Shown in pieces: positions 1,236-61,548 of a stretch of DNA of 64,000 nucleotides; the stretch's first letter is position 1, and the number at the start of each line of letters is the position of its first letter. Source of the DNA: Escherichia phage vB_EcoM-fFiEco06. The notes beneath the pieces were generated by a model. It had not been told where the DNA came from. It did no database searches and was given only the letters and a program-made list of their open reading frames with translations. The DNA lies in sequence record NC_054914.1. One strand, 5' to 3'. The position numbers and the translations under genes are program-made.

Positions 1236-1880
1236 TTGATTATGGGGCTTCGGCCCCTATTCTCGAGGAAACAAGTGATTATTTCTAAGTTTGTTACAAT
1301 AAAACCAAGAAATCATTCAAAAATGTGGTCGACAATTCTGGGATATAAAGTATCATATCATGATACAGTATCTGTTCCAATAGAATTAATGCCAAAGAAT
1401 AGTAATAAAATAGTTGACGCTAAATGTGATTTGTGTGGTATTAAATTTAGTAGAAGCATTCAGCTTTTAAATAGAACACCCACGCATGCATGTAGAAAAT
1501 GTAGCATTAAACAAGTTGCTATTAAAAATTCGGAAGTTCAATCTGGAATAAGTAGACCATGGCAAAGAGGTGATAAACATCCTCGATGGACTGGTAAAAG
1601 AAAAGAGTTTGCATTATATGCTAGTAGAGTTCATTCTATAACTAAGTCAGCTAAAATAAGAAAAATCTGGTCAAAATGGCCAAATGCTGATAAAATAGGA
1701 GTGTGTGGTGTAGAAGGTGCTTACCAGCTTGATCATAAGGTATCTATCAAATATGGATTTGATAATTTAATTCCGCCGGAAATTATAGCAAGCGTAAAAA
1801 ATTTAGAAATAATCACTTGGGAATCTAACCGAGAAAAGTCAAAAAGAAATAGCGTAGATCTTTGGGATTTACTAGAATGA
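1236..1880 (+). CDS. HNH-family endonuclease-like protein with N-terminal CxxC...CxxC zinc ribbon; probable free-standing homing endonuclease; start codon uncertain (TTG 1236, ATG 1242, GTG 1272 or ATG 1323)
   Basis: C-terminal motif YQLDHKVSIKYGFDNL...ITWESNREKSKRN (D-H...N...N) and CDLCG...CRKC seen in translation; ORF fills the gene 18/19 gap. Confidence 0.55.
   Translation: MIMGLRPLFSRKQVIISKFVTIKPRNHSKMWSTILGYKVSYHDTVSVPIELMPKNSNKIVDAKCDLCGIKFSRSIQLLNRTPTHACRKCSIKQVAIKNSEVQSGISRPWQRGDKHPRWTGKRKEFALYASRVHSITKSAKIRKIWSKWPNADKIGVCGVEGAYQLDHKVSIKYGFDNLIPPEIIASVKNLEIITWESNREKSKRNSVDLWDLLE
1244..1257 (+). terminator. GGGGC-UUCG-GCCCC tetraloop hairpin immediately after gene 18 stop
   Basis: Perfect 5-bp GC stem with UUCG loop read directly; weak U-tract. 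Confidence 0.6.
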
Positions 1881-6297: not shown

Positions 6298-7863
6298 ATG
6301 ACTATCAAAACTAAAGCTGAACTTTTGAACAAATGGAAGCCATTACTGGAAGGTGAAGGTTTACCGGAAATTGCTAATAGCAAACAAGCGATTATCGCTA
6401 AAATCTTTGAAAACCAGGAAAAAGATTTCCAGACAGCTCCGGAATATAAAGACGAAAAAATTGCTCAGGCATTCGGTTCTTTCTTAACAGAAGCTGAAAT
6501 CGGTGGTGACCACGGTTACAATGCTACCAACATCGCTGCAGGTCAGACTTCTGGAGCAGTAACTCAGATTGGCCCAGCTGTTATGGGTATGGTACGTCGT
6601 GCTATTCCTAACCTGATTGCTTTCGATATTTGTGGTGTTCAGCCAATGAACAGCCCGACTGGCCAGGTATTCGCACTGCGCGCAGTATATGGTAAAGACC
6701 CAATCGCTTCCGGTGCTAAAGAAGCATTCCACCCAATGTATGGTCCAGATGCAATGTTCTCTGGTCAGGGTGCTGCTAAGAAATTCGCTGCTTTGAAAGC
6801 AAGTGATACTCTTGAAGTCGGAACTATTTACACTCACTTCTTCCAGGAAACTGGTACAGTATATCTGCAAGCTACAGCAGCTAAACAAATTGATTCAGGC
6901 GCATCTGACGCAGACAAATTAGATGCTGAAATTAAGAAACAAATGGAAGCTGGTGTACTGGTAGAAATCGCTGAAGGTATGGCTACTTCTATCGCTGAAC
7001 TTCAAGAAGGTTTTAACGGTTCTACCGATAACCCGTGGAATGAAATGGGCTTCCGTATCGATAAACAAGTTATCGAAGCTAAATCTCGTCAGCTGAAAGC
7101 TGCTTACTCTATTGAATTAGCACAAGACCTCCGCGCTGTTCACGGTATGGATGCTGATGCTGAACTGTCTGGTATTCTGGCTACAGAAATTATGCTGGAA
7201 ATCAACCGTGAAGTTGTTGATTGGATTAACTACTCCGCTCAGGTTGGTAAATCTGGTATGACCCTGACTCCGGGTTCTAAAGCTGGTGTATTTGACTTCC
7301 AGGACCCAATCGATATTCGTGGTGCTCGCTGGGCAGGTGAATCCTTTAAAGCTCTGTTGTTCCAGATTGACAAAGAAGCAGTTGAAATTGCTCGTCAGAC
7401 TGGTCGCGGCGAAGGTAACTTCATTATCGCTTCCCGTAACGTAGTTAACGTTCTGGCTTCAGTTGATACCGGCATTTCTTATGCTGCACAAGGTCTGGCT
7501 ACTGGCTTTAACACTGATACTACCAAGTCAGTATTTGCTGGTGTTCTGGGTGGTAAATACCGTGTATATATCGACCAGTATGCTAAACAGGATTATTTCA
7601 CCGTAGGTTATAAAGGTCCGAACGAAATGGATGCTGGTATTTACTATGCTCCATATGTAGCTCTGACTCCGCTGCGTGGTTCTGATCCGAAGAACTTCCA
7701 ACCGGTAATGGGATTCAAAACTCGTTACGGTATCGGTATCAACCCATTTGCAGAATCCGCTGCTCAGGCTCCGGCTTCTCGCATCCAGAGCGGTATGCCT
7801 TCTATTCTGAATAGCCTTGGTAAAAACGCTTACTTTAGACGTGTATATGTTAAAGGTATCTAA
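6298..7863 (+). CDS. 23: major capsid protein gp23 (521 aa precursor)
   Basis: Sequence recognisable as T4 gp23 (MTIKTKAELLNKWKPLLEGEG...); length identical. Confidence 0.97.
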   Translation: MTIKTKAELLNKWKPLLEGEGLPEIANSKQAIIAKIFENQEKDFQTAPEYKDEKIAQAFGSFLTEAEIGGDHGYNATNIAAGQTSGAVTQIGPAVMGMVRRAIPNLIAFDICGVQPMNSPTGQVFALRAVYGKDPIASGAKEAFHPMYGPDAMFSGQGAAKKFAALKASDTLEVGTIYTHFFQETGTVYLQATAAKQIDSGASDADKLDAEIKKQMEAGVLVEIAEGMATSIAELQEGFNGSTDNPWNEMGFRIDKQVIEAKSRQLKAAYSIELAQDLRAVHGMDADAELSGILATEIMLEINREVVDWINYSAQVGKSGMTLTPGSKAGVFDFQDPIDIRGARWAGESFKALLFQIDKEAVEIARQTGRGEGNFIIASRNVVNVLASVDTGISYAAQGLATGFNTDTTKSVFAGVLGGKYRVYIDQYAKQDYFTVGYKGPNEMDAGIYYAPYVALTPLRGSDPKNFQPVMGFKTRYGIGINPFAESAAQAPASRIQSGMPSILNSLGKNAYFRRVYVKGI

Positions 7864-7877
7864 TCTTTGACGATTTA

Positions 7878-7895
7878 AGGGACCTTCGGGTCCCT
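7878..7895 (+). terminator. AGGGACC-UUCG-GGUCCCU hairpin with T-rich tail after gene 23
   Basis: 7-bp stem, UUCG loop, followed by TTAGTTGTTTTT. Confidence 0.75.
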
Positions 7896-7911
7896 TTAGT
7901 TGTTTTTATGG

Positions 7912-7919
7912 TATAAATA
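7912..7919 (+). promoter_or_regulatory. late promoter TATAAATA for gene 24
   Basis: Exact match ~28 nt upstream of ATG 7947. Confidence 0.7.
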
Positions 7920-7946
7920 AATCATATAAACCAAAAGGAAAGCGCA

Positions 7947-9230
7947 ATGGCTAAAATCAACGAACTTCTGCGCGAATCAACCACAACGAATAGCAACTCA
8001 ATCGGTCGCCCAAATCTCGTTGCTTTGACTCGCGCTACCACTAAATTAATATATTCTGACATTGTAGCAACGCAAAGAACTAATCAACCTGTTGCTGCTT
8101 TTTATGGTATCAAATACCTTAACCCGGATAACGAATTTACATTTAAAACTGGTGCTACTTACGCTGGCGAAGCTGGGTATGTAGACCGAGAACAAATCAC
8201 AGAATTAACAGAAGAGTCTAAATTAACTCTCAATAAAGGCGATTTATTCAAATATAATAATATCGTTTATAAAGTATTAGAAGATACACCATTTGCTGAT
8301 ATTGAAGAAAGCGATTTAGAATTAGCTCTTCAGATTGCAATCGTTCTTTTAAAGGTTCGTCTATTTTCTGATGCTGCAGTAACAAGCAAATTTGAAAACT
8401 CTGATAGCGAAATTGCGGATGCTAGATTCCAGATTAATAAATGGCAAACCGCAGTTAAATCTCGTAAACTTAAAACTGGTATCACAGTTGAATTAGCACA
8501 AGATTTAGAAGCAAATGGATTCGATGCTCCTAATTTCTTGGAAGATTTGCTTGCAACTGAAATGGCAGATGAAATCAATAAAGATATTCTGCAGTCTTTG
8601 ATTACAGTGTCAAAACGCTATAAAGTTACAGGAATTACTGATACTGGATTCATTGATTTGAGTTATGCATCTGCACCTGAAGCTGGTCGTTCATTATACC
8701 GAATGGTGTGTGAAATGGTTTCACATATCCAGAAAGAATCAACTTATACAGCAACGTTCTGTGTTGCTTCAGCTCGTGCCGCTGCGATTCTTGCTGCATC
8801 AGGTTGGTTAAAACATAAACCAGAAGATGACAAATATCTTTCACAAAATGCCTACGGGTTCTTAGCTAATGGTTTACCGCTTTATTGCGATACCAACAGT
8901 CCATTAGATTATGTAATCGTTGGCGTAGTAGAAAATATTGGTGAAAAAGAAATTGTTGGATCAATTTTCTATGCTCCGTATACAGAAGGTCTTGACTTAG
9001 ATGACCCTGAACATGTAGGTGCATTTAAAGTTGTAGTTGATCCAGAAAGTTTGCAGCCATCTATCGGTTTATTAGTTAGATATGCTTTATCTGCAAATCC
9101 TTACACTGTAGCAAAAGATGAAAAAGAAGCAAGAGTAATTGATGGTGGAGATATGGATAAAATGGCGGGTCGTTCAGATTTGTCTGTTTTATTAGGTGTT
9201 AAGCTACCAAAAATTATCATTGATGAATAA
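7947..9230 (+). CDS. 24: capsid vertex protein gp24 (427 aa)
   Basis: Length and position match T4 gp24. Confidence 0.9.
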   Translation: MAKINELLRESTTTNSNSIGRPNLVALTRATTKLIYSDIVATQRTNQPVAAFYGIKYLNPDNEFTFKTGATYAGEAGYVDREQITELTEESKLTLNKGDLFKYNNIVYKVLEDTPFADIEESDLELALQIAIVLLKVRLFSDAAVTSKFENSDSEIADARFQINKWQTAVKSRKLKTGITVELAQDLEANGFDAPNFLEDLLATEMADEINKDILQSLITVSKRYKVTGITDTGFIDLSYASAPEAGRSLYRMVCEMVSHIQKESTYTATFCVASARAAAILAASGWLKHKPEDDKYLSQNAYGFLANGLPLYCDTNSPLDYVIVGVVENIGEKEIVGSIFYAPYTEGLDLDDPEHVGAFKVVVDPESLQPSIGLLVRYALSANPYTVAKDEKEARVIDGGDMDKMAGRSDLSVLLGVKLPKIIIDE

Positions 9231-12697: not shown

Positions 12698-12726
12698 TAG
12701 ATATATTTATTACATGGTATTTAGAC

Positions 12727-14238
12727 ATGACTGACATTAAAGTACATTTTTATGATTTTAGTCACGTGAGAATTGATTGTGAAGAAAGTACATTTCATGA
12801 ACTCCGTGATTTCTTTAGCTTTGAAGCTGATGGGTATCGTTTTAATCCGAAGTACAAATATGGCCACTGGGATGGACGAATTCGTCTTTTAGATTATAAT
12901 CGCCTTCTTCCATTCGGTTTAGTCGGGCAAATTAAAAAGTTCTGCGATAACTTTGGCTATAAAGCCTGGATTGACCCACAGATTAACGAAAAAGAAGAAT
13001 TATCAAGAAAAGATTTTGATGAATGGCTTTCTAAATTAGAAATCTATTCAGGAAATAAAAGAATTGAACCGCATTGGTATCAAAAAGATGCAGTGTTCGA
13101 AGGATTAGTTAATCGTCGTAGAATTCTTAATCTTCCAACATCCGCAGGTAAATCTTTAATTCAAGCTTTGCTTGCTCGGTATTATTTGGAAAATTATGAA
13201 GGCAAAATTCTTATTATTGTTCCAACAACTGCTCTGACAACTCAGATGGCTGATGACTTTGTTGACTATCGTTTATTCAGTCATGCAATGATAAAGAAAA
13301 TCGGTGGTGGAGCATCAAAAGATGATAAATATAAAAATGATGCACCGGTCGTTGTTGGTACATGGCAAACTGTAGTAAAACAACCGAAAGAATGGTTCTC
13401 ACAGTTTGGAATGATGATGAATGATGAATGTCATCTTGCTACAGGAAAAAGTATTTCATCTATCATATCAGGTTTAAATAACTGCATGTTCAAATTCGGT
13501 TTGTCTGGTTCATTACGTGATGGCAAAGCCAATATCATGCAGTATGTTGGAATGTTCGGTGAAATATTTAAGCCAGTAACGACTTCTAAGTTAATGGAAG
13601 ATGGACAAGTAACTGAGCTAAAAATTAATAGTATTTTTCTTCGCTATCCCGATGAGTTCACTACTAAATTAAAGGGAAAAACTTATCAAGAAGAAATAAA
13701 AATTATTACGGGGCTTAGTAAAAGAAATAAATGGATCGCTAAATTGGCTATTAAGCTTGCACAAAAAGATGAAAACGCTTTTGTCATGTTTAAACATGTA
13801 TCGCATGGTAAAGCTATTTTCGATTTAATTAAAAATGAATACGATAAAGTTTATTACGTATCAGGGGAAGTTGATACCGAAACCCGCAATATAATGAAAA
13901 CCTTAGCTGAAAATGGTAAAGGAATAATTATAGTAGCTAGTTATGGTGTATTTTCTACTGGTATTTCAGTTAAAAATCTGCATCACGTTGTTTTAGCGCA
14001 CGGTGTTAAATCAAAAATCATTGTATTACAAACAATCGGTCGTGTATTACGTAAGCATGGTTCTAAGACAATAGCAACCGTCTGGGACCTCATAGATGAT
14101 TGTGGCGTTAAGCCAAAATCTGCTAATACGAAAAAGAAATACGTTCATTTGAACTATCTTTTAAAACACGGCATTGATCGTATTCAGCGCTACGCAGATG
14201 AAAAATTTAATTACGTAATGAAAACAGTTAATTTATAA
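12727..14238 (+). CDS. uvsW: UvsW SF2 DNA/RNA helicase (503 aa)
   Basis: Walker A LPTSAGKS, DEAH-like MNDECH; length matches T4 UvsW. Confidence 0.9.
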   Translation: MTDIKVHFYDFSHVRIDCEESTFHELRDFFSFEADGYRFNPKYKYGHWDGRIRLLDYNRLLPFGLVGQIKKFCDNFGYKAWIDPQINEKEELSRKDFDEWLSKLEIYSGNKRIEPHWYQKDAVFEGLVNRRRILNLPTSAGKSLIQALLARYYLENYEGKILIIVPTTALTTQMADDFVDYRLFSHAMIKKIGGGASKDDKYKNDAPVVVGTWQTVVKQPKEWFSQFGMMMNDECHLATGKSISSIISGLNNCMFKFGLSGSLRDGKANIMQYVGMFGEIFKPVTTSKLMEDGQVTELKINSIFLRYPDEFTTKLKGKTYQEEIKIITGLSKRNKWIAKLAIKLAQKDENAFVMFKHVSHGKAIFDLIKNEYDKVYYVSGEVDTETRNIMKTLAENGKGIIIVASYGVFSTGISVKNLHHVVLAHGVKSKIIVLQTIGRVLRKHGSKTIATVWDLIDDCGVKPKSANTKKKYVHLNYLLKHGIDRIQRYADEKFNYVMKTVNL

Positions 14239-23143: not shown

Positions 23144-25201
23144 CTACATTTTGAACTTTTTAGACATTCCGTTGATGTTAACCAAAGAAGTCAAGATTTG
23201 AGAAACTTCATTTTCCTCTTCTTTTGATTCTTCTACAAGGAATTGATTAAATCCAGCCATTGGACGAACTTCACCAGTTTCCATTAGATGGTCTCCATCA
23301 TATACTGATTCTTCTAATTGTTCAGAAGGAGGAACGATTGTACCTTCGATTAGATACTTGTTATAAGCAGTTTCTTTCATAAAGTACGTACTTACTTTAT
23401 TAATCTTCAGTAAAATTCCACGTGGTAGAATAACTTCAGCTTCTGATGGAAATCCTGATAAATGACCTGGAACGATAACTTTGATTCGCTCAGCTCCTTT
23501 AATTACCATACCCACGCTAGTTTCTGCATCTTCATTAGCATATGTAGAATGACTACCCATATGCATCAAATCTTCTGCATCAACGGAACCTTCTCCTTCA
23601 CCAGAAAATACTGCGCCGGAATCATCTAGAGCCATATAGTTTTTACCATGCTCACCGAAGATATTTGGTTTAAGCGATGTGGATACGAAGTTCTTGAAAT
23701 AGAACATTTTATTTTCAATGTTATGACGCAAAGTTTTAAAGGTAACTTCTTGCCCACGGTAAAGTGTAGTTCCTGGAGGAAGAACTGATCCTTTGGCAAA
23801 GGCAGAATCTAACGTCTCGATGTGCTTAATAGCTCGTTCCATGTATTCTTCACGGGTAGAATCTGGTTTACCCAAAAGGAACGAGTTCATTTCAACATAT
23901 GAATCTGCACAATAATCTTCAATTACATCAGATTCAGCCTGAGTCAGTCCTTTTGGAGCTACTTCGGTGCTTGCGTATTCATATGCCTGGGCAGCAGATT
24001 CATTAATCAATTTATAAATGCCATTCATTACAAATTGAATAATAGCTGTCTTTTCATCTGGTGTGGTTTTAGAACCTTTAACTAAATCATTAATAATTTT
24101 CTTAATAACATCAAAGCTATTAGAAATATTAATGTCAGCAAGATCGCTTAAAATTTTATCAGTTTTATAATCAAAGAATTCTTTATTCTTTAAATATTCT
24201 TGAGAACCTTGATATGTTATATCGCTCTGCAACTTGATAGATGGATCACGTAAACGTGCATGGGCCAATGCAATATGATTTCGGAAGCTTTCTAGTTCAT
24301 AATCGCTAGATTTAAAACGAGAAGCACTTCTCATACCACCGATAGCTCCTTTGCTGAAGTTTGAACCAATCTGGATAACGCCAGAGTTCATTGGTCCTTC
24401 TGCTTTATATACCGGAACTTTAGATTCAAACTCTTGATATTTCTTGGCAGCGAAGCTATCACCCTGTAGCGAAGCATCGACAGTAGAATATTGAGCTTGT
24501 GCTGCTAATCGACGACTAATTTTAGTTTTCTGAATAACAGCTTGGTCCGTGCGCTTATCATTTTCTAAAGCAATAGAAGCAGCAACAGCGACAGCTTTAG
24601 GAACAGCATTTCCTGTTTTAACGTCTACATAAACATCACCGACCTTTGATTCAACTTTTGTGAATAACTCAGTTGAAATGGGAGGTACACCTGGAATGTC
24701 TTCTAAATTGGCATTTTTACGGTAAACCATAATATATGCGTACTTTTTATCGTAATCCCAGATTTCCTTTAAAAGAACATATCGACCTGCTCCTTTAGTA
24801 CGTACTAAACGGTCAGCAATAACTTGCATTTGACGAGCTGCGCCATTTGTTTTACTCTTTAGTACACGGAATAAGCACGCGTCAATTTTATACTGCTTCA
24901 TTGTTTGAAGAGCAGTATCAAAAACGGCATTAATGACACCAATTGGATTTCCACCCAAGTTTTTAAGCTTAACTAATGATAGTTTCTCATTAACACCTAT
25001 CATTACGATATGCATCATTTTATCGCCTGGCTTAACGTTTTTATTCGTATCACCACCAGAGGTGTATGTACAAAATCTAAATCCAGGAAGCACGCTTTCT
25101 TCGCCGGCTTGAATAGCAAAAATTTGTGGTATTTTATGCTTAGGATTTAAGTTAACAACCGGCGCCGAAGCGCCGTCAAATAATTCTGTAATAAGTTCCA
25201 T
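23144..25201 (-). CDS. Alt-like ADP-ribosyltransferase paralog (685 aa), R-S-E motifs intact
   Basis: N-terminus MELITELFD shared with the upstream copy; TLYRGQ, NFVSTSL, EAEVILPRG motifs seen. Confidence 0.75.
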   Translation of the reverse strand: MELITELFDGASAPVVNLNPKHKIPQIFAIQAGEESVLPGFRFCTYTSGGDTNKNVKPGDKMMHIVMIGVNEKLSLVKLKNLGGNPIGVINAVFDTALQTMKQYKIDACLFRVLKSKTNGAARQMQVIADRLVRTKGAGRYVLLKEIWDYDKKYAYIMVYRKNANLEDIPGVPPISTELFTKVESKVGDVYVDVKTGNAVPKAVAVAASIALENDKRTDQAVIQKTKISRRLAAQAQYSTVDASLQGDSFAAKKYQEFESKVPVYKAEGPMNSGVIQIGSNFSKGAIGGMRSASRFKSSDYELESFRNHIALAHARLRDPSIKLQSDITYQGSQEYLKNKEFFDYKTDKILSDLADINISNSFDVIKKIINDLVKGSKTTPDEKTAIIQFVMNGIYKLINESAAQAYEYASTEVAPKGLTQAESDVIEDYCADSYVEMNSFLLGKPDSTREEYMERAIKHIETLDSAFAKGSVLPPGTTLYRGQEVTFKTLRHNIENKMFYFKNFVSTSLKPNIFGEHGKNYMALDDSGAVFSGEGEGSVDAEDLMHMGSHSTYANEDAETSVGMVIKGAERIKVIVPGHLSGFPSEAEVILPRGILLKINKVSTYFMKETAYNKYLIEGTIVPPSEQLEESVYDGDHLMETGEVRPMAGFNQFLVEESKEEENEVSQILTSLVNINGMSKKFKM

Positions 25202-25204
25202 GAT

Positions 25205-27259
25205 TTATCCTTGAACGAACTTGTAAGGCATGTTTGCAATATCTATACAAGACGCAATAATTCCAAGAGATGATTCTACTTTCTGTTTAACGTTTGATGA
25301 AACAAATGATGTAAAGTCAACTCTGTCTTCTATTTCAATATCACCTGTCATTGCAACTACTTCGCCGGTTTCCATTAGACGGTCACCGTCATAAATTACC
25401 GATTCGGTGAGTTCTTCTGTGGTCATAACTTCAGCTTGAATAAGCTTGTTGTTAGTTTTAACTGTTCCATCATTGTAAGATGCATCGGTTATTTTATTAA
25501 CTTTGACCATTAATCCACGTGGCAAAATGACTTCCATTTCATTTGAAGGTGCTAAACTTCCACCTGGTAAAACAACATTGACTTTATCAGCCCCAGTAAT
25601 AACCCATCCAATTCCAACTAAATTATCGCTAGAATTTACTAGTCCTTCATCAGTTTTATCAATAGAAACACTTAAACGCTTTTCGTCTGGTAAAACACCC
25701 ACAGATGAATCAGTCATCCAGGTACCAAAAATATTTGGATATAATGATGTTGACACAAAATTTCTAAAATAAAAAACTCGATTTTTTACCAGTGCTTCAT
25801 ATATTGAAGGTAACATTCGTTGTGAACGATACAAAGTAATACCTTTTGGTAATCGTTCACCATTTTTAAAGGCAGAATCTAAATTATCAATAGCTTTTTC
25901 TATATCAGATGCTGTCAAAATACTTGTACGCTCATCTGGATTATATAATCCCAAAAGAGCGTTATTTATGTCTACATATCCTGAACTTACGTATTCACGA
26001 ATTCCGCGTTTTTGTGCCGGTGTGTATTTAGATGAATCTTTATTTTCGACTATAGGATGTAGTGACCATCCAGCGGTAAGAGCATATCCACGCAATTCTC
26101 TTCGAATAATCTTTGTTTTTATTGCATTCCAAGAATTTTGTACTAACTCATTCGCAGCATCTTGATTTAAATGCGAATGCTTGTTAATGTTTCTTTCTAA
26201 CCAAGCACCTTTATATTTTTCTAAAGTATCATCAACTATAGAAGCAATAGTTTCTAAAGTTTTTATTGAAGTAATAGATTCTTTTCGTAATCTTTCTAAA
26301 GCTTTATTTTTTATTTCTGCATTAACATCAGATTCTTTATCTTCAGGAATTATAGAAGCTTCTCTGAATGCCATTCCAGCTGTAACACTACTAAGAGCAT
26401 TCTCTAATGCAAATCCTGAAGTAGAAATAACAGTTAATTCATTAGCGTCAGAAATTAAAGGAGCGTCAGCAGGTTTATTTAATTCTGCTGCTGAAGCCTC
26501 AAATTTTTGAAACATCGGCGTTTCAAATCTAGAAGATTCCAATGATTGACTTTGCGCAATTGCTCTACGGGAAATTTTAACTTTAACGATTACAGCTTGG
26601 TCAGAACGTTTATCATTTTCTTGCGCAATAGATGCTGCAATTGCCTCATTTTTAGTTACTTGAGCTCCAGTATCTTTATTGATATAAACATCACCGACCT
26701 TCGATTCAACTTTAGTAAAGAGCTCAGTACTAATTTCCGGAACTCCCGGAATGTCTTCTAGTGATACATTTTTGCGATGTATAAGAATATATGCATACTT
26801 TTTATCGTAATCCCAGAGTTCCTTAAGAAGGACATATCTGCCACCTGAACGACTACGGATAAGTCTATCAGCAATAACTTGAATTTGTCGAGCTTGACCA
26901 GCGGTTTTAGACTTAAGAATACGAAGCATACAGGCATCAATTTTATACTGACGCATTGTTTGCATCGCAACAGTAAAAACTGAATTGATATAATTAATTG
27001 GGCTTGGACCAAGACCTTTTAATTTAGCAATTGAACCTTTAGCAGTTAATGTAAAAGGAACAATATGCATCATTTTATCGCCCATCTTTAAATCGCGATT
27101 AGTATCACCTCCAGATGTATAGGTACATAAACGAAAGCCTGGTTGTTCAATTGCATCATCAACATGAACTGAAAAAATTTGCGGTATTTTCTTCTTTGGA
27201 TTTAAGTTTGTAATCGGAAGAGTAGTATCTTCGTCAAATAATTCTGTAATAAGTTCCAT
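25205..27259 (-). CDS. alt: ADP-ribosyltransferase Alt (virion-packaged); start taken as second ATG (MELITELFDEDTT...)
   Basis: LYRSQ, FVSTSL, EMEVILPRG (R-S-E ART motifs); late promoter and RBS upstream; ~684 aa. Confidence 0.8.
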   Translation of the reverse strand: MELITELFDEDTTLPITNLNPKKKIPQIFSVHVDDAIEQPGFRLCTYTSGGDTNRDLKMGDKMMHIVPFTLTAKGSIAKLKGLGPSPINYINSVFTVAMQTMRQYKIDACMLRILKSKTAGQARQIQVIADRLIRSRSGGRYVLLKELWDYDKKYAYILIHRKNVSLEDIPGVPEISTELFTKVESKVGDVYINKDTGAQVTKNEAIAASIAQENDKRSDQAVIVKVKISRRAIAQSQSLESSRFETPMFQKFEASAAELNKPADAPLISDANELTVISTSGFALENALSSVTAGMAFREASIIPEDKESDVNAEIKNKALERLRKESITSIKTLETIASIVDDTLEKYKGAWLERNINKHSHLNQDAANELVQNSWNAIKTKIIRRELRGYALTAGWSLHPIVENKDSSKYTPAQKRGIREYVSSGYVDINNALLGLYNPDERTSILTASDIEKAIDNLDSAFKNGERLPKGITLYRSQRMLPSIYEALVKNRVFYFRNFVSTSLYPNIFGTWMTDSSVGVLPDEKRLSVSIDKTDEGLVNSSDNLVGIGWVITGADKVNVVLPGGSLAPSNEMEVILPRGLMVKVNKITDASYNDGTVKTNNKLIQAEVMTTEELTESVIYDGDRLMETGEVVAMTGDIEIEDRVDFTSFVSSNVKQKVESSLGIIASCIDIANMPYKFVQG

Positions 27260-27282
27260 CATAGCCTCTCTAGTGTTTATTC

Positions 27283-34824: not shown

Positions 34825-35057
34825 AGTACGCCATACACCCTTTGTGCTTCAACTAATCCATCAAAATCCAATTTGAGATGTGTTATTTGGTCACCATCAC
34901 CTGGATTCACAATTACTAATACTGAACGAGGAGTTTCGGTAATAACACGAACCGATGTTTCGGGAAATCGTTCAGAAACCTTATTTACTAATTCCTGCGC
35001 AAATAGTTTAACTTTTTCTTGGAATTCTTTAACAGTAATTGGTTTTTCACTTAGCAT
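34821..35057 (-). CDS. hypothetical protein, 78 aa (cd.2 position)
   Basis: ATGA-coupled ORF. Confidence 0.5.
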   Translation of the reverse strand: MLSEKPITVKEFQEKVKLFAQELVNKVSERFPETSVRVITETPRSVLVIVNPGDGDQITHLKLDFDGLVEAQRVYGVL

Positions 35058-35578
35058 GTTGATCCCAGCTCCTTACTTTCAACGTTTTTAACTAATTTGA
35101 CAGAAACTAATTCAGCATCTTGGGTAATCATTACCGGGCCTTCTTCATGCTCTTCAAGATATTCTAGAGCTTTCTTTTTAGCTTCTTCCTTCGTATCAGT
35201 TTGAGCATAGATATAGAACATACAACCAGTAATACCTACTACTTTCCACTTAATTTCTTTATCAGTTTTAATTTCAAATTTACTTACAGAATCATCTTTT
35301 TGAACTTCTTCGAAAAAAGAATATTCTAACATATAAGCAATTGAAAATAACGGGCTAACTTTATAGGATTCACCCATTACATCAACAGCTTTATACCAAC
35401 AATCATCAATTTCGCGTTTAATGCTAATAACATTTTTCGCAGGATCTATTTTTACTTTAAATGAATTTTCCCCAATAAACTGGGCAATTCGTTTATTAGC
35501 CCCGCAAGTTTCATTAAAAATATCTTTATACCCAGTTTTAAAGCGATAAACCTTATCTTCTTCAAACCATTCGCTCAT
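35051..35578 (-). CDS. hypothetical protein, 175 aa (cd.3 position)
   Basis: ORF preceded by promoter cassette. Confidence 0.5.
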   Translation of the reverse strand: MSEWFEEDKVYRFKTGYKDIFNETCGANKRIAQFIGENSFKVKIDPAKNVISIKREIDDCWYKAVDVMGESYKVSPLFSIAYMLEYSFFEEVQKDDSVSKFEIKTDKEIKWKVVGITGCMFYIYAQTDTKEEAKKKALEYLEEHEEGPVMITQDAELVSVKLVKNVESKELGSTC

Positions 35579-36118: not shown

Positions 36119-37526
<1,408 letters not shown>

Positions 37527-37530
<4 letters not shown>

Positions 37531-41755: not shown

Positions 41756-41806
41756 AAATTTTCCGCTTAGTTAATAGTTGGTGACTCGTCCGTGAGTCAA
41801 ATTATA

Positions 41807-44071
41807 TCATAATTTACAGGATGAACAATCTTCAGCTTTTGGAGTTTCTATTTCATAATCATCAGTACCAGAACCATCGCGGGTATTATGATAATAGAAA
41901 TTTTTTCCGCCAAAATACCAAAAATACAAAAGGTCATCAATCATTATTGACATTGGAACCTTGCCTTTAGGGAAGATTTGGGGGTCATAGTATGTATTCG
42001 CCGAAGCTGATTGACAAACCCATTTCAGCATAATAGCTACCTGCGTAAGATAAGGTTTATTACCTTTCTTAGCTAATTTCCATGTATAGTCGTAAAGGTC
42101 TATGTTATGCTCAATATTGGGCACGACTTGATTAAAGGAACCCTCTTTTGATTCTTTAACAGAGACTGGTCCACGTGGAGGCTCGATACCGTTTGTACTG
42201 TTAGAAACTTGGGAAGATGACTCACATGGCATAAGTGCTGATAATGTGCTATTACGGATGCCAAAGAGCTTAAGGTCTTCCCGCAGCGCCGACCAGTCAC
42301 AAACGTATTTTGGAGCTGCGATTTGGTCAATCTTTTTATTGTACCAGTCGATAGGTAATTCGCCTCGAGACCAACGAGTGTCTGAATAATATTCGCAAGG
42401 TCCTTTTTCTTTGGCGAGCTTAATGGATGCTTTAATGAGTCCATACTGTAATCTCTCAAATAGTTCATGTGTTAAATCATTAGCATCTTCATAAGAAGCA
42501 AAGTTACTTGCCAGCCAAGCTGCATAGTTGGTAACACCTACACCGAGGTTACGACGCTTTTTAGCTTTTTCTGCTTCAGGAACTGGATATCCTTGGTAAT
42601 CCAACAGATTATCAAGAGCACGAACTTGAACTTCTGCCAATTCATTAATTTTATCTTGGTCTTGCCAGTCAAAATTATCTAGTACGAATGCAGAGAGAGT
42701 ACACAATCCAATTTCAGCATCAGGACTATTCACATCATTTGTTGGAATAGCAATTTCACAGCACAAGTTACTCTGACGAATAGGTGCCTTTTCACGAATA
42801 AACGGAGTATAGTTATTCGTATTATCAATGAACTGTACATAAATTCTTGCTGTTCCTGAGCGTTCAGTCATGAGCAATTCAAATAGTTCACGGGCTTTAA
42901 TACGCTTTTTACGAATATTAGGGTCTTTTTCTGCTGCTTCGTATAATTCACGGAAACGGTCTTGGTCTTTAAAATAAGAATAATAAAGCTCTCCGCCCAT
43001 TTCATGGGGACTGAACAAAGTAATGTAATCGTTCTTTCCAAAACGTTCCATCATCAAATCATTCAGTTGAACACCATAATCCATATGACGAATGCGGTTT
43101 TCTTCTACGCCTTTGTTATTTTTCAAAACAAGAAGATTTTCAACTTCCAAATGCCAAATAGGATAATAAGCAGTAGCAGCGCCGCCACGAATTCCACCCT
43201 GTGAGCATGATTTAACAGCAGTCTGAAAATGTTTCCAAAAAGGAATAACACCAGTATGGCGTACTTCACCCATGCCAATCTTAGAACCTTCAGCACGAAT
43301 CATACCAACGTTAATACCAATTCCAGCGCGTTTAGAGATATATTCAACAATTGAAGCAGAAGCCTTATTGATAGACTTCAGTGAATCGCCTGCCTCAATA
43401 ACAACGCATGAACTAAACTGCCGAGTTGGAGTACGGCAACCAGCCATAATAGGAGTTGGTAATGAAATCTGTCGAGTAGATACCGCTTCATAAAAACGGA
43501 TAACATGTTTTAATCTATCAACAGGTTCATCTTGATGCAAGGCCATTCCAATAGTCATAAATGCAAACTGTGGAGTTTCATAAATTTGACCAGTGGTTTT
43601 ATCTTTAACTAGATATTTTTCTTTTAATTGCATCGCCCCGGAATAAGTAAATTCCATATCCCGTTCGTGCTTAATTTTTGATTCTAAAAATGTAATTTCT
43701 TCTGCTGAATATTTTGACAACAGTTCAGGGTCGTATTTACCTTCATTTACACAGTAAGAAATATGGTCAATAAATGAACGCGGTTCATACTGCCCATAAA
43801 CATGCTTACGAAGAGCGAACATTAGACAACGTGCAGCTACATATTGATAATCAGGCTCTTCGACCGAAATAGAATTCGCAGCGGCCTTAATGACAATAGT
43901 CTGAATATCATCAGTTGTCATTCCATCACGGAGATAAGATTTAATATTTTCATATAATTCATAAGGATCTACTGATGTTCCCTCAGATGCCCAAGATAAA
44001 ACTTTAATAATTTTTTGCGGGTCAAAGCTCTGAGAAACACCACTACTTTTGATAACATTAATTAATTGCAT
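41807..44071 (-). CDS. nrdA: ribonucleotide reductase large subunit NrdA (754 aa)
   Basis: Length matches T4 NrdA; class I RNR large subunit. Confidence 0.93.
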   Translation of the reverse strand: MQLINVIKSSGVSQSFDPQKIIKVLSWASEGTSVDPYELYENIKSYLRDGMTTDDIQTIVIKAAANSISVEEPDYQYVAARCLMFALRKHVYGQYEPRSFIDHISYCVNEGKYDPELLSKYSAEEITFLESKIKHERDMEFTYSGAMQLKEKYLVKDKTTGQIYETPQFAFMTIGMALHQDEPVDRLKHVIRFYEAVSTRQISLPTPIMAGCRTPTRQFSSCVVIEAGDSLKSINKASASIVEYISKRAGIGINVGMIRAEGSKIGMGEVRHTGVIPFWKHFQTAVKSCSQGGIRGGAATAYYPIWHLEVENLLVLKNNKGVEENRIRHMDYGVQLNDLMMERFGKNDYITLFSPHEMGGELYYSYFKDQDRFRELYEAAEKDPNIRKKRIKARELFELLMTERSGTARIYVQFIDNTNNYTPFIREKAPIRQSNLCCEIAIPTNDVNSPDAEIGLCTLSAFVLDNFDWQDQDKINELAEVQVRALDNLLDYQGYPVPEAEKAKKRRNLGVGVTNYAAWLASNFASYEDANDLTHELFERLQYGLIKASIKLAKEKGPCEYYSDTRWSRGELPIDWYNKKIDQIAAPKYVCDWSALREDLKLFGIRNSTLSALMPCESSSQVSNSTNGIEPPRGPVSVKESKEGSFNQVVPNIEHNIDLYDYTWKLAKKGNKPYLTQVAIMLKWVCQSASANTYYDPQIFPKGKVPMSIMIDDLLYFWYFGGKNFYYHNTRDGSGTDDYEIETPKAEDCSSCKL

Positions 44072-44940: not shown

Positions 44941-45956
44941 CATTATGTTCAGATAAGGTCGTTAATCTTACCCCGGAATTATATCCAGCTGCATGTCACC
45001 ATGCAGATCAGACTATATCTCCAACTTGTTAAAGCAAGTTGTCTATCGTTTCGAGTCACTTGACCCTACTCCCCAAAGGGATAGTCGTTAGGCATTTATG
45101 TAGAACCAATTCCATTTATCAGATTTTACACGATAAGTAACTAATCCAGACGAAATTTTAAAATGTCTAGCTGCATCTGCTGCACAATCAAAAATAACCC
45201 CATCACATGAAATCTTTTTAATATTACTAGGCTTTTTACCTTTCATCTTTTCTGATATTTTAGATTTAGTTATGTCTGAATGCTTATGATTAAAGAATGA
45301 ATTATTTTCACCTGAACGATTTCTGCATTTACTACAAGTATAAGCAGAAGTTTGTATGCGAACACCGCACTTACAAAACTTATGGGTTTCTGGATTCAAA
45401 CGCCCGTTTTTACTTCCGGGTTTACTGTAAAGAGCTTTCCGACCATCAGGTCCAAGTTTAAGCATCTTAGCTTTAACAGTTTCAGAACGTTTCTTAATAA
45501 TTTCTTCTTTTAATGGATGCGTAGAACATGTATCACCAAACGTTGCATCAGCAATATTGTATCCATTAATTTTAGAATTAAGCTCTTTAATCCAAAAATT
45601 TTCTCGTTCAATAATCAAATCTTTCTCATATGGAATTTCTTCCAAAATAGAACATTCAAACACATTACCATGTTTGTTAAAAGACCTCTGAAGCTTTATA
45701 GAAGAATGGCATCCTTTTTCTAAATCTTTAAAATGCCTCTTCCATCTCTTTTCAAAATCTTTAGCACTTCCTACATATACTTTATTGTTTAAAGTATTTT
45801 TAATCTGATAAATTCCGCTTTTCATAAATACCTCTTTAAATATAGAAGTATTTATTAAAGGGCAGTCCTACAATTTAGCACGGGATTGTCTACTAGAGAG
45901 GTTCCCCGTTTAGATAGATTACAAGTATAAGTCACCTTATACTCAGGCCTCAATTA
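44941..45956 (-). mobile_element. td group I self-splicing intron (1016 nt) carrying I-TevI
   Basis: Intron 5' sequence TAATTGAGGCCTGAGTATAAGGTGACTTATACTTGTAATC... recognised; length equals T4 td intron. Confidence 0.92.
45088..45825 (-). CDS. I-TevI: GIY-YIG homing endonuclease I-TevI (245 aa), intron-encoded
   Basis: N-terminus MKSGIYQIKNTLNNKVYVGSAKDFEKRWKRH (GIY...YVG) and zinc finger; length matches. Confidence 0.93.
   Translation of the reverse strand: MKSGIYQIKNTLNNKVYVGSAKDFEKRWKRHFKDLEKGCHSSIKLQRSFNKHGNVFECSILEEIPYEKDLIIERENFWIKELNSKINGYNIADATFGDTCSTHPLKEEIIKKRSETVKAKMLKLGPDGRKALYSKPGSKNGRLNPETHKFCKCGVRIQTSAYTCSKCRNRSGENNSFFNHKHSDITKSKISEKMKGKKPSNIKKISCDGVIFDCAADAARHFKISSGLVTYRVKSDKWNWFYINA

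Positions 45957-46504: not shown

Positions 46505-46505
<1 letters not shown>
45957..46505 (-). CDS. td: thymidylate synthase exon 1 (183 codons, MKQYQ...VDVFLG)
   Basis: TS N-terminal sequence; exons 1+2 give 286 aa as in T4. Confidence 0.92.
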
Positions 46506-47534
<1,029 letters not shown>

Positions 47535-49616: not shown

Positions 49617-49682
49617 TTTTATTTCCTTTTTAATTTAATTAACAGTTGGTGCTATGACGATGTATGACCTCATAGCTGGTCA
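49617..49682 (-). promoter_or_regulatory. gene 32 autoregulatory translational operator: A/U-rich leader (UUAAUUAAAUUAAAAAGGAAAUAAAAAUG) preceded by an RNA pseudoknot
   Basis: Minus-strand leader read directly; pseudoknot stems UGACC/GGUCA and GCUAUGA/UCAUAGC. Confidence 0.75.
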
Positions 49683-49699
49683 GTGAGATAATTATAATC

Positions 49700-49707
49700 T
49701 ATTTATA
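49700..49707 (-). promoter_or_regulatory. late promoter TATAAATA (minus strand) upstream of gene 32 leader
   Basis: Exact TATTTATA on plus strand. Confidence 0.55.
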
Positions 49708-49715
49708 ATAAGCAA

Positions 49716-57696: not shown

Positions 57697-60681
57697 ATGG
57701 CTACTTTAAAACAAATACAATTTAAAAGAAGCAAAACTGCAGGTCAACGTCCTGCTGCTTCAGTATTAGCCGAAGGTGAATTGGCTATAAACTTAAAAGA
57801 TAAAACAATTTTCACAAAAGATGACTCAGGTAGTGTTATAGAATTAGGTTTAAAATATGGAGGAACAATTGATGGTTCTTTAACTGTTAATGGAAATATA
57901 ATTGGAAATTTAACAGGTAACGCTGCAACTGCAACGAAATTAAAAACAGCACGAAAAATTAATGGTATATCCTTTGATGGGTCAAAAGATATCACGCTAA
58001 CTCCATCTGACATAAATGTCAATAGCACAACGTTTATAAAAAATAATGGCGAATTACCTGTTGATGCTAATTTAGATACGTATGGGCCTGTTGAAGAATG
58101 TCTTGGAGTTTGGTCGAAAGCAACTTCAACCAACGCTCAACCAGCAAATAAATTTCCAGAAGAAAATGCTGTAGGTGTGCTAGAAGTATTTGTGGCCGGT
58201 CAATTTGCTGGTACTCAGAGATATACAACTAGATACGGAAATGTTTATATTCGTTCCTTGACTGCTACATGGAACGGAGTAAATGGTCCGTGGAGTGTGT
58301 GGCGAAATATTCAATCTGGTACTCGTCCACTGTCAACAACAATTGATCTTAATGATCTAGGAGGCGCTGAACACTTTGGTTTGTGGCGAAATAGTTCAAA
58401 TTCCATTGCTACCTTTGACAGAAATTTCCCAGAAGAAGGATCGTCCGCTCAAGGACTTTTAGAAGTATATGAAGGTGGAAACTATTCTCGCACACAGAGA
58501 TATACGACCAGATTTGGTGTTGTTTATACTCGTTGTCTTACTGCTGCGTGGGATGCTTCTGCGCCTAAATGGGGACCTTGGCAACAAGTCGGTAATGTCA
58601 CACCGGCGACTTTCTATGACGGAGATCTGAATGATTTTAAAACTCCTGGGTTATATAATATTTTAGGCACTGATGCCGTTATTAACTGTCCTACCGGTGA
58701 AGGTTTGCCGACTGTTATTGTTGGTTTGCTGGAAGTTAAACAGCGTGCTTCTGGCGGTGCTATTTTCCAAAAATTTACTACTGCCGGAACGGGTGCAACT
58801 ACTCGCGATCGTATTTTTGAGCGTGCATATACTGGTGGTGTGTGGGGTGCATGGAACGAAGTATATACATCTTATTCTCTTCCAATTACTTTGGGTATGG
58901 GTGGTATTAAAGCTCAATTAGCGGAGTTAGATTGGCAAACCTTTGATTTTGTTCCTGGTAGTATGTTTAGCGTTCCTTTGAACAAAATAAAGAACATGCC
59001 AGCAAATATGGATTGGGGGACGATTGACGGAAACCTGGTTATGTTTTCCGTTGGTCCTAGCGAACACACTAGCACAGGGCGTACTGTTCAGGTTTGGCGC
59101 GGTACTGTATCCCAGACAAACTACCGTTATTTTGTCGTTCGTGTGTTCGGTAATTCTGGAAATAGAACTTGCACAGTCCGCCGTGTTGTTCTTGAAGATG
59201 GTCGCCACACATGGACAGCTCAACAAGATTTTAATGGTGCTGTTAACTTCGGTGCTCCTACCAATTTTAACTCTACTGTTAACCTTAATAACACTACCAC
59301 ATTTAAAACAGAAGTTAAATTCCGCTCATCTAATGCATTCCGTATGTATGGCGGAAAATTTGGTACAATTTTCCGTAATGATGGAGAGAGTCTTTATATT
59401 CTTTCCACCGACGAAAATGATCAAGATGGAAACTTTAATACAAATAGACCTTTCCGTTATGAATTAAGAACTGGTGATGTTACTTTGGGTGGTACTAGTG
59501 GTGCTAACGTTTTAAAATTAAAACGCGATTCTCTCACCGCATTTTTTGGTGGTGATATTAATATAAAAGGCTTGATGACTTTTGATGCCGGACGTTTAGG
59601 ATCACGAGATTATTTTAAATTTAACCATTGGGGTGATAGTAATAATGCGCGCGATAACATTATTCAGTTAGAAGACAGCAAAGGCGTTCATTTTTCCACT
59701 GAACGTACTTTAGCGACTGGTGCAATTAAAACTAAATTCTTTGGTGAAGTTGAATCCGAAGGTAGATTGATTATTAAACGTCCGGGTGATTCTATTGTAT
59801 TATCAACAACTGCTGGTAATGCTTTGCATATTCGTGGTGACGTAGACGGGAGTGGTAACTGGTATATTGGTAAGGGTGGTGCTGATAATTCGCTAGCATT
59901 TTATAGCTATGCTACTCAGGCGGCAGTACATATCACAAACAATGGTGAGATTTCGCTAAATCCACAAAATATCGCAATGGTTAACGTTAACCGCGATCGT
60001 GTACACATTAACGGTTCTGGATGGATTGCTAGACAACCGGGTGATTGGGGCAACCAATGGCGAGTAGAAGCTCCATTATTCGTCGATCATGGTTATGTTT
60101 CACAGGATTGTTATTATCCAATTATTAAAGGAAGAAGTGTAATCACCAATCAAGGGTTTGTAACTGCCGTCGATCTTGGTATTCGTCGTGTCCCTAACAA
60201 TTGGGGGCAAGCAATTATTCGTGTTGGATCTGCAGAGGCATCGCCAGCGGCTGGACACCCTAACGCGGTATTTGAATTTCATTACGACGGTACTTTCTAT
60301 TCTCCTGGTAATGGTAACTTTAACGATGTGTATATTCGTTCCGATGGTCGTCTTAAGATTAATAAAAAAGAGCTAGAAAACGGAGCACTTGAAAAAGTAT
60401 GTCGACTGAAAGTTTATATTTACGATAAAGTTAAGTCTATTAAAGACCGTAGTGTTATTAAACGTGAAGTTGGTATTATTGCTCAGGACCTTGAAAAGGA
60501 ATTACCGGAAGCTGTATCTAAAGTTGAAGTTGATGGATCTGATGTTCTGACAATTTCTAACTCTGCTGTGAATGCTCTTTTAATTAAGGCTATTCAGGAA
60601 ATGAGTGAAGAAATTAAAGAATTGAAAACGCCTCTCTTTACTAAAATTGCTCGCAAAATTAGTAAATATTTTAAATTCTAA
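57697..60681 (+). CDS. 37: long tail fibre distal subunit gp37 (994 aa), T2-type with C-terminal intramolecular chaperone-like domain
   Basis: Position/size; N-terminus conserved with T4 gp37; C-terminal SDGRLK motif. Confidence 0.9.
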
Positions 60682-60687
60682 CAACAA

Positions 60688-60702
60688 GGGGGAAATGCCC
60701 CC
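60688..60702 (+). terminator. GGGGG-AAAUG-CCCCC hairpin + UUU after gene 37
   Basis: 5-bp G/C stem read directly. Confidence 0.55.
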
Positions 60703-60716
60703 TTTGGAGTATAATT

Positions 60717-61517
60717 ATGGCAGTAGTTGGTGTTCCTGGTTGGATTGGAAGTTCAGCCGCAAATGAAACAGGACAGCGCTGGATGAGTCAAGCGGCTGGT
60801 CAATTAAGATTGGGTGTTCCTTGCTGGATGAGTCAATTTGCAGGTCGCTCACGAGAAATTATTCACACCCTTGGAGCGGACCATAACTTCAATGGTCAAT
60901 GGTTCCGAGATAGATGTTTTGAGGCAGGTAGTGCACCTATAGTGTTTAATATTACCGGAAATTTGGTATCATATTCTAGAGACGTTCCTTTATTCTTCAT
61001 GTATGGAGATACACCTAATGAATATGTTCAGTTGAATATTGGTGGCGGCGTCCATATGTGGGGTAGAGGTGGACAAGGTGGATGGACCCATTCCGGCGGA
61101 GATGGTAATGGTCAACAAGGTGGTCATTGTATTCAAAATGACATCGGTGGACGATTAAGAATTAATAACGGTGGAGTAATTTGTGGTGGAGGTGGAGGTG
61201 GAGGTGGTATCGCTTATCGTCCTCACTCTGGTGCAAATTGGCAAGATATTGGTGGTGGTGGAGGAAGACCATTTGGCCCAGGAGGAGGCGGAGGTTATTC
61301 CGGCGGCGCAGCTTCTTATGATGGCCCAGGAGGTGGTTATAATTATGGTAATGCTCACTCTGGCCAGGGTGGTGATGCTGGCGCAAATGGACAAAATGCC
61401 TGGTATGATGGCGGTAAAGTTCTAAAAGTTGGAGCTGGTGGCGCTGCCGGATATGCTGTTATAGGATCAGCTCCAACATGGCAAAATGTTGGAGTAATAT
61501 ATGGTCCAAGGGTATAA
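60717..61517 (+). CDS. 38: gp38 receptor-binding adhesin (T2/T6 type, glycine-rich motifs), 266 aa
   Basis: Conserved N-terminal domain followed by Gly-rich motifs and variable segments; between 37 and t. Confidence 0.8.
61035..61451 (+). repeat. glycine-rich motif region of gp38 (GGG.., GGGGGGGG, GGGGG, GGGGG runs separated by variable segments)
   Basis: Poly-Gly runs in translation; GGT/GGA/GGC codon runs in DNA. Confidence 0.8.
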
Positions 61518-61548
61518 TTTTGAATAAATATCCTTAAAAGGAGGGTCT

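Follow-up and report, generated by a model that had tools for sequence, protein, structure and literature searches.

Genes 23 and 24 of the T-even phages meet at a junction that in some phages holds the GIY-YIG endonuclease gene segD and in others does not, and a junction without the gene raises the question of whether it is a vacant homing site or simply the usual form of the spacer. In T4, segD lies between genes 23 and 24 in antisense orientation and lacks its own promoter; a review of 2010 gives its target as unknown (PMC2988022). We examined this junction in a 64,000-nucleotide stretch of Escherichia phage vB_EcoM-fFiEco06 (NC_054914.1), the whole of which is called the window below. Over its first 25 kb the window shows 99.9% identity, and at the junction 100%, with Escherichia phage vB_EcoM-fHoEco02 (MG781191). 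We consider it highly probable that the region is the ordinary short-allele 23/24 spacer of a Tequatrovirus, consisting of a terminator and a promoter and free of segD by default. The features on which the argument turns are the following.

6298 to 7863, plus strand: gene 23, encoding the major capsid protein of 521 aa (from the ORF list; stop codon TAA at 7861-7863).
7834 to 7839, plus strand: codons F513-R514 of gene 23, which read TTT-AGA here and TTC-CGY in the alternative form, the difference being synonymous and confined to bases 7836, 7837 and 7839.
7864 to 7946, plus strand: intergenic spacer of exactly 83 bp, the short, segD-less T2-type allele (from the sequence and the ORF list).
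7877 to 7896, plus strand: putative intrinsic terminator hairpin of gene 23, with an 8-bp stem and a C(UUCG)G tetraloop.
7912 to 7919, plus strand: T4-type late promoter motif TATAAATA, predicted to serve gene 24 from 27 nt ahead of its ATG.
7935 to 7942, plus strand: Shine-Dalgarno region, AAGGAAAG as read from the sequence, placed 7 nt ahead of the ATG that starts gene 24.
7947 to 9230, plus strand: gene 24, encoding the capsid vertex protein of 427 aa (from the ORF list and matches).

The product of gene 23 is labelled 'major capsid protein' in fHoEco02 and in hundreds of other matching records, and the gene shows 95.4% nucleotide identity between the window and T4. The first-pass annotation had described the junction as 83 bp holding a terminator hairpin and a late promoter, with no room for segD. 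This description was borne out: the spacer reads TCTTTGACGATTTAAGGGACCTTCGGGTCCCTTTAGTTGTTTTTATGGTATAAATAAATCATATAAACCAAAAGGAAAGCGCA in full, no ORF fits within its 83 bp, and the window has no GIY-YIG ORF between genes 23 and 24. The hairpin lies 13 nt past the stop codon of gene 23; its stem, formed by 7877-7884 and 7889-7896, reads AAGGGACC-TTCG-GGTCCCTT with the TTCG loop at 7885-7888, and a T-rich tail, TTTAGTTGTTTTT, follows directly on its 3' side and extends to about 7908. When the whole window was searched by tblastn with T4 SegD and the SegD-like protein of LF82 as queries, the only match was I-TevI of the td intron (45091-45825). Scanned against Rfam at E<=1, positions 7500-8300 matched nothing.

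We found that the terminator of gene 23 is a real and conserved structure. A terminator scan picked up the hairpin at 7877-7896, with two sites in the 400-bp region as compared with 0.3 expected, and the fold of the hairpin region had an energy of -24.1 kcal/mol (z = -2.5). Among 59 diverse T4-like loci from IMG/VR, 31 carried a C(UUCG)G hairpin 3' of gene 23, in 11 stem variants. Compensatory changes were present at six of the eight stem pairs, 96.6% of the cells were paired, and the covariation score was matched by none of 500 shuffles. A G+C-rich stem-loop and a T-rich run after the stop codon, together with compensatory conservation in relatives, are the marks of a rho-independent terminator. 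Similarly, the motif TATAAATA was enriched, with 18 copies in the window versus 7.95 +/- 2.6 expected, a count that was reached in none of 100 shuffles. In 36 of the 59 loci it stood within the 70 nt that precede gene 24, and it also occurs in the spacers of T4, T6 and Mosigvirus. Its place on the coding strand, shortly 5' of the late gene 24, is that of a T4 late promoter. The ribosome-binding site AAGGAAA is likewise conserved in the T4 and Mosigvirus spacers.

On the basis of what is known of T4, of the sequence and of its conservation, the functions of these elements can be predicted. Gene 23 is very highly expressed, and its late transcripts would end at a rho-independent terminator formed by the C(UUCG)G hairpin and its U-rich tail, and the late promoter, sixteen bases beyond the terminator, would restart transcription for gene 24, which would be served by its own ribosome-binding site. 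A short allele that works in this manner would never need segD.

The segD-bearing form of the junction is that of T4 (NC_000866), in which gene 23 ends at 106510, segD occupies 106561-107232 on the minus strand, and gene 24 starts at 107323. The T4 spacer (106511-107322) is 812 bp long with the antisense segD inside it, and the statement in the first-pass annotation that T4 carries segD at this place, and not elsewhere, was correct according to this map. The gene is also found at the 23/24 junction in T6, PST, RB18, RB55 and others. T4 SegD is a protein of 223 aa with a SegE_GIY-YIG, a GIY-YIG and a C-terminal HTH domain (Pfam PF19835, PF01541 and PF12728). In an alignment of 12 Tequatroviruses, five with and seven without segD, the spacers were of two sharply separate kinds, one of 83 bp and the other of 811-812 bp, with sequences nearly invariant within each kind and different between them. 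Seven segD-less phages whose spacers were measured (RB51, slur07, HY01, Sf21, Shinka, ESh24 and T2) all had exactly 83 bp. In the T4 spacer, the 50 nt at the left end proved to be a diverged copy of the terminator, with 34 of 37 aligned bases identical and a 12-nt insert, and the T4 stem, GGGAACC/GGTTCCC, is a compensatory variant of that in the window. The right 40 nt are a diverged copy of the promoter and ribosome-binding site, with 27 of 36 bases identical. Since both ends of the T4 spacer align to the short spacer, the T4 allele can be described as the short spacer with about 730 bp placed between terminator and promoter. A wholesale replacement of the T4 spacer by a Mosigvirus-like one was also considered, and was dropped because pairwise alignment shows its ends to be these diverged homologues of the short spacer.

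The flanking genes, the terminator hairpin, TATAAATA and the ribosome-binding site are thus homologous in T4 and in the window, whereas T4 has about 730 extra bp containing the antisense GIY-YIG gene segD and its 90-bp upstream region. The T4 allele thus has a somewhat diverged form of this terminator and promoter, with segD and its upstream region lying between them. The junction of T2 (PV958097, LC348380), the classical phage without segD, in contrast, has the whole 83-bp spacer with its terminator and late promoter, as well as TTT-AGA in gene 23, and does not differ from that of the window at all: the two are identical over 7684-8125, although 87 substitutions separate them across genes 23-24 as a whole (97.0% identity). 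Because of this identity, lessons from T2-type junctions hold for the window, whose spacer is simply the T2 spacer in a phage that had already been sequenced and annotated.

A side observation from the 12-phage alignment concerns the start of gene 24, where the first 92 nt (7947-8038) contain no variable site, as compared with a regional mean of one variable column per approximately 10 nt. Within this start, AGCAACTCAATCGGTCGCCCAAATCTCGTTGCTTTGACTCGCGCTAC, a block of about 45 nt, is nearly identical in Mosigvirus too. The conservation could reflect a signal at the level of RNA or translation, or a target for an endonuclease.

The short 83-bp spacer is the majority state of the junction, and the absence of segD from it is not special. 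In an evenly spaced sample of the matching Tequatrovirus records, the short junction was present in 25 of 28, and segD in the other three (T4, T6 and CJY920). Among approximately 490 records matching the junction, 55 (about 11%) carried the T4-type spacer and about 89% the short one. That T-even phages are polymorphic for segD between genes 23 and 24 was already known, and the finding as stated matters little. That the short junction is an artefact, segD having been lost in the laboratory or collapsed in assembly, is vanishingly improbable: only the difference in length from T4 speaks for it, and hundreds of phages that were sequenced independently, T2, RB51 and HY01 among them, already refute it by having the identical 83-bp spacer.

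The first-pass annotation had further proposed that, in a cell co-infected by a segD-bearing phage, this junction would serve as a target site. On this reading, SegD would cut at or near the empty junction, and repair from the segD-bearing genome would copy segD into it, with the exclusion of local markers. The enzyme combines a GIY-YIG domain with an HTH at its C-terminus, and its activity is easily detected in extracts of T4-infected cells, where it is an active and specific endonuclease (PMC2330249), and SegB, SegE, SegF and SegG do act in this way on T2 or RB30 (PMC2330249, PMC2988022). Genes of the SegD family are found at the 23/24 junction in at least four lineages, and segD sits on mosaic flanks in which the sole fixed coding difference between segD-bearing and segD-less phages is a linked 6-mer, the pair of codons listed above. 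Moreover, compared with T4, T6, PST and others, the window does present an endonuclease-less allele homologous to an endonuclease-bearing one, as a homing site should. However, no base distinguishes the window from T4 in the final 180 nt of gene 23 or in the opening 179 nt of gene 24, so that window, T2 and T4 agree for no less than 179 nt in either coding flank, and the window has the 6-mer haplotype of every segD-bearing phage. Donor and recipient therefore differ only in the spacer, and any SegD site within the coding flanks would be the same, and equally present or absent, in both.

The SegD cleavage site is reportedly the same in segD-less and segD-bearing phages, in T4 and T2, which fits the flank identity measured here; SegD is said to cut this site, and the site placed in rII was reportedly not recombinogenic. 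A literature search on the SegD cleavage site yielded nothing further. The title of Sokolov et al. 2018, as it stands in the reference list of PMC10448857, states that SegD does not initiate homing, and PMC9523250 paraphrases the result as neither homing nor recombination at a SegD site inserted in rII. We infer the behaviour of the junction in mixed infection from this title and from such secondary citations.

The homing sites of SegB, SegE, SegF and SegG in T2 or RB30 resemble the window in that, at a locus where T4 has a free-standing GIY-YIG gene beside an essential gene, the allele is endonuclease-less and its flanks are homologous and available for recombination. For these enzymes homing or marker exclusion has been shown, and the recipient site differs from that of T4 (PMC2330249, PMC2988022). 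SegD is unlike them in that the published result, as conveyed by the title and the paraphrase, is an absence of homing, and in that the flanks of the window equal those of T4. On co-infection with a segD-bearing phage, the allele of the window would be expected to behave like that of T2, because the allele is T2-identical, carries TTT-AGA and has the coding flanks of T4. The gene could enter by ordinary homologous recombination; efficient homing driven by SegD would not be expected. With T4-identical flanks, a published result of no homing, the majority allele and the TTT-AGA haplotype of segD-bearing phages, the proposed target site is unsupported for the allele of the window. We regard the homing-site reading as very doubtful, and the prediction can be set aside for this allele.

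The 6-mer itself deserves closer attention, since, in the 12-phage alignment, no coding site near the junction other than bases 7836, 7837 and 7839 distinguishes segD-bearing from segD-less phages. TTT-AGA was present in all 55 Tequatrovirus records with segD in a T4-type spacer, versus approximately 53 (about 12%) of approximately 433 records with the short spacer, a comparison for which Fisher p-values are nominal only, as database records are far from independent; about 380 of the short-spacer records had TTC-CGC. The short-spacer records with TTT-AGA include T2, PE37 and the relatives of the window. A similar division was found in Mosigvirus, in which all of the LF82-type records seen to carry the SegD-like gene had TTT-AGA, as did about 18 endonuclease-less records such as TH58, while the bulk of the genus had TTC-CGY. 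In 67 sequences from many genera, TTT-AGA occurred 12 times and TTC-CGN 55 times, with no intermediates. Column-wise conservation of the gene 23 tail across genera was read over the last 15 codons, as indels break the register upstream of about 7816. The three bases have flipped together on at least eight backgrounds, some of them in sister pairs with 99-100% identity in the remaining 237 nt. In LF82-16 and in a second locus (L037), the tract of synonymous differences linked to the endonuclease begins exactly at the 6-mer and extends to the endonuclease gene.

These properties recall I-TevI and its site at the td intron. SegD has an I-TevI-like layout, with an N-terminal GIY-YIG and a C-terminal HTH domain. 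I-TevI cuts CNNNG, after the second and the fourth base, upstream of its binding site (PMC12774661), and the 6-mer, about 26 nt from the insertion boundary, resembles such a cleavage position; TTT-AGA abolishes both of the CNNNG motifs of the TTC-CGC form, which lie about 26 nt from the spacer boundary. Unlike I-TevI, segD is free-standing and antisense and has no intron. Judging from these sequence patterns, the 6-mer may mark a target of the SegD family or an immunity determinant.

One possible explanation is therefore that the SegD family targets codons ~512-515 of gene 23 in the TTC-CGY form and that TTT-AGA is immune to cleavage, in which case the window and T2 would be empty but resistant. 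The distribution of TTT-AGA over the spacer types in the two genera, the joint change of all three bases, the starting point of the difference tract and the loss of the CNNNG motifs are all consistent with this explanation. If it is true, about 78% of Tequatrovirus records, those with TTC-CGC, would be real homing substrates and still invadable, the activity of SegD without homing in the crosses tried would be explained, given T2 as the segD-less partner, and the junction of the window would be predicted not to be a target. However, tight linkage over 27 nt can by itself give such an association. Moreover, the Dhakavirus-like loci L026/IME341 and L021 carry an endonuclease and yet have TTC-CGT or TTC-CGG, and TTT-AGA is found in six endonuclease-less IMG/VR loci. 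The reported cutting by SegD of a site common to T4 and T2 also points to inactivity in vivo and not to immunity of the site. We consider a resistant site unlikely; in either case, the bimodal 6-mer tracks SegD-family genes in two genera and bears on why an active, expressed SegD does not home.

TTT-AGA in a short-spacer phage might also be a footprint of secondary loss, the lineage having once carried segD and having lost it by a crossover with a short-allele phage within the 24 nt that separate the 6-mer from the stop codon. TTT-AGA is fully linked to segD and rare among short alleles, and about 18 Mosigvirus records, TH58 for example, combine an endonuclease-type gene 23 tail and terminator with the absence of an endonuclease, as such a loss would leave them. 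But the 83-bp spacer of the window is that of the TTC-CGC phages and has no remnant of segD, and TTT-AGA with a short spacer may equally be the background on which segD was first inserted, as the data give no direction. We consider a secondary loss quite improbable, and prefer the view that the window simply carries the ordinary short allele.

The Mosigvirus records just mentioned (TH58, WFL6982 and others) are 100% identical to LF82-16 (L006) over 76 nt of the gene 23 tail and the start of the terminator but lack a SegD-like gene; they represent either the state before insertion or a precise loss of the gene.

In other genera, too, the junction has received SegD-family genes. The Mosigvirus (RB69-like) junction resembles that of the window in its C(UUCG)G terminator, in the framing by TATAAATA and in the split between TTT-AGA and TTC-CGY, and it is polymorphic for an antisense SegD-like gene as the Tequatrovirus junction is for segD. 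This gene, whose product is 57% identical to T4 SegD, was found in 33 Mosigvirus records. The Mosigvirus spacer also contains an antisense ORF of 88-89 aa (phrog_6003), which is absent from the window. Further antisense relatives of SegD lie at the junction in Dhakavirus-like phages, in CGG4-1-like phages and in other lineages, and in Slopekvirus-like phages the relative lies in sense orientation and differs in its C-terminal domain (see also PMC8778798). The recurrence of SegD-family genes at this junction in several genera argues for repeated invasion over evolutionary time. A search of IMG/VR with an alignment of the SegD family recovered, as full-length matches, only the six loci already known; the other matches covered the N-terminal domain only and belonged to other Seg-like families. 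Unrelated genes were seen in the spacer as well. Five IMG/VR loci of other T4-like genera (L048, L065, L070, L072 and L073) have an antisense ORF of approximately 480-505 aa that belongs to phrog_3339, annotated as 'homing endonuclease', and in a further one (L056) the spacer ORF is in sense orientation and encodes a tail-needle-knob domain (PF16532).

A patchwork of mobile endonuclease genes is usual in T-even phages (PMC2988022), and several other differences of this kind from T4 were observed in the window. It is without segE (at the inh/uvsW junction), the nrdB intron with I-TevIII, nrdB.1 and mobE, and segG, the sites of the missing endonucleases being at 12714-12732, 41080, 41756-41810 and 49680-49714. 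The td intron with I-TevI is kept (45091-45825), and its protein is 99.6% identical to that of T4. Between genes 18 and 19, where T4 has a gap of 116 bp, the window has a 643-bp insertion containing an ORF of 212 aa (1242-1880, plus strand). Its product belongs to phrog_5104, of unknown function, has a weak match to a homing-endonuclease PHROG (E = 8e-4) and is called 'hypothetical protein' in fHoEco02; a Pfam search with this ORF gave no match. The C-terminus resembles an HNH motif (DH...N...N) by eye, which makes the ORF a candidate free-standing homing endonuclease.

Four small ORFs that are absent from T4, all on the minus strand, lie at 35051-35578 (cd.2/cd.3), 37210-37530 (pseT/pseT.1), 46505-46711 (td/frd) and 47289-47534 (frd/frd.1); they belong to phrog_3710, 2364, 9550 and 3183, all of unknown function, and a Pfam search with them was blank. 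The distal tail-fibre and adhesin region at 57852-61523 (genes 37/38) does not align to T4. At about 23164-27262, the alt region contains extra alt-like sequence whose identity to alt and alt.-1/-2 of T4 is approximately 69%, and it may therefore hold a tandem paralogue of alt.
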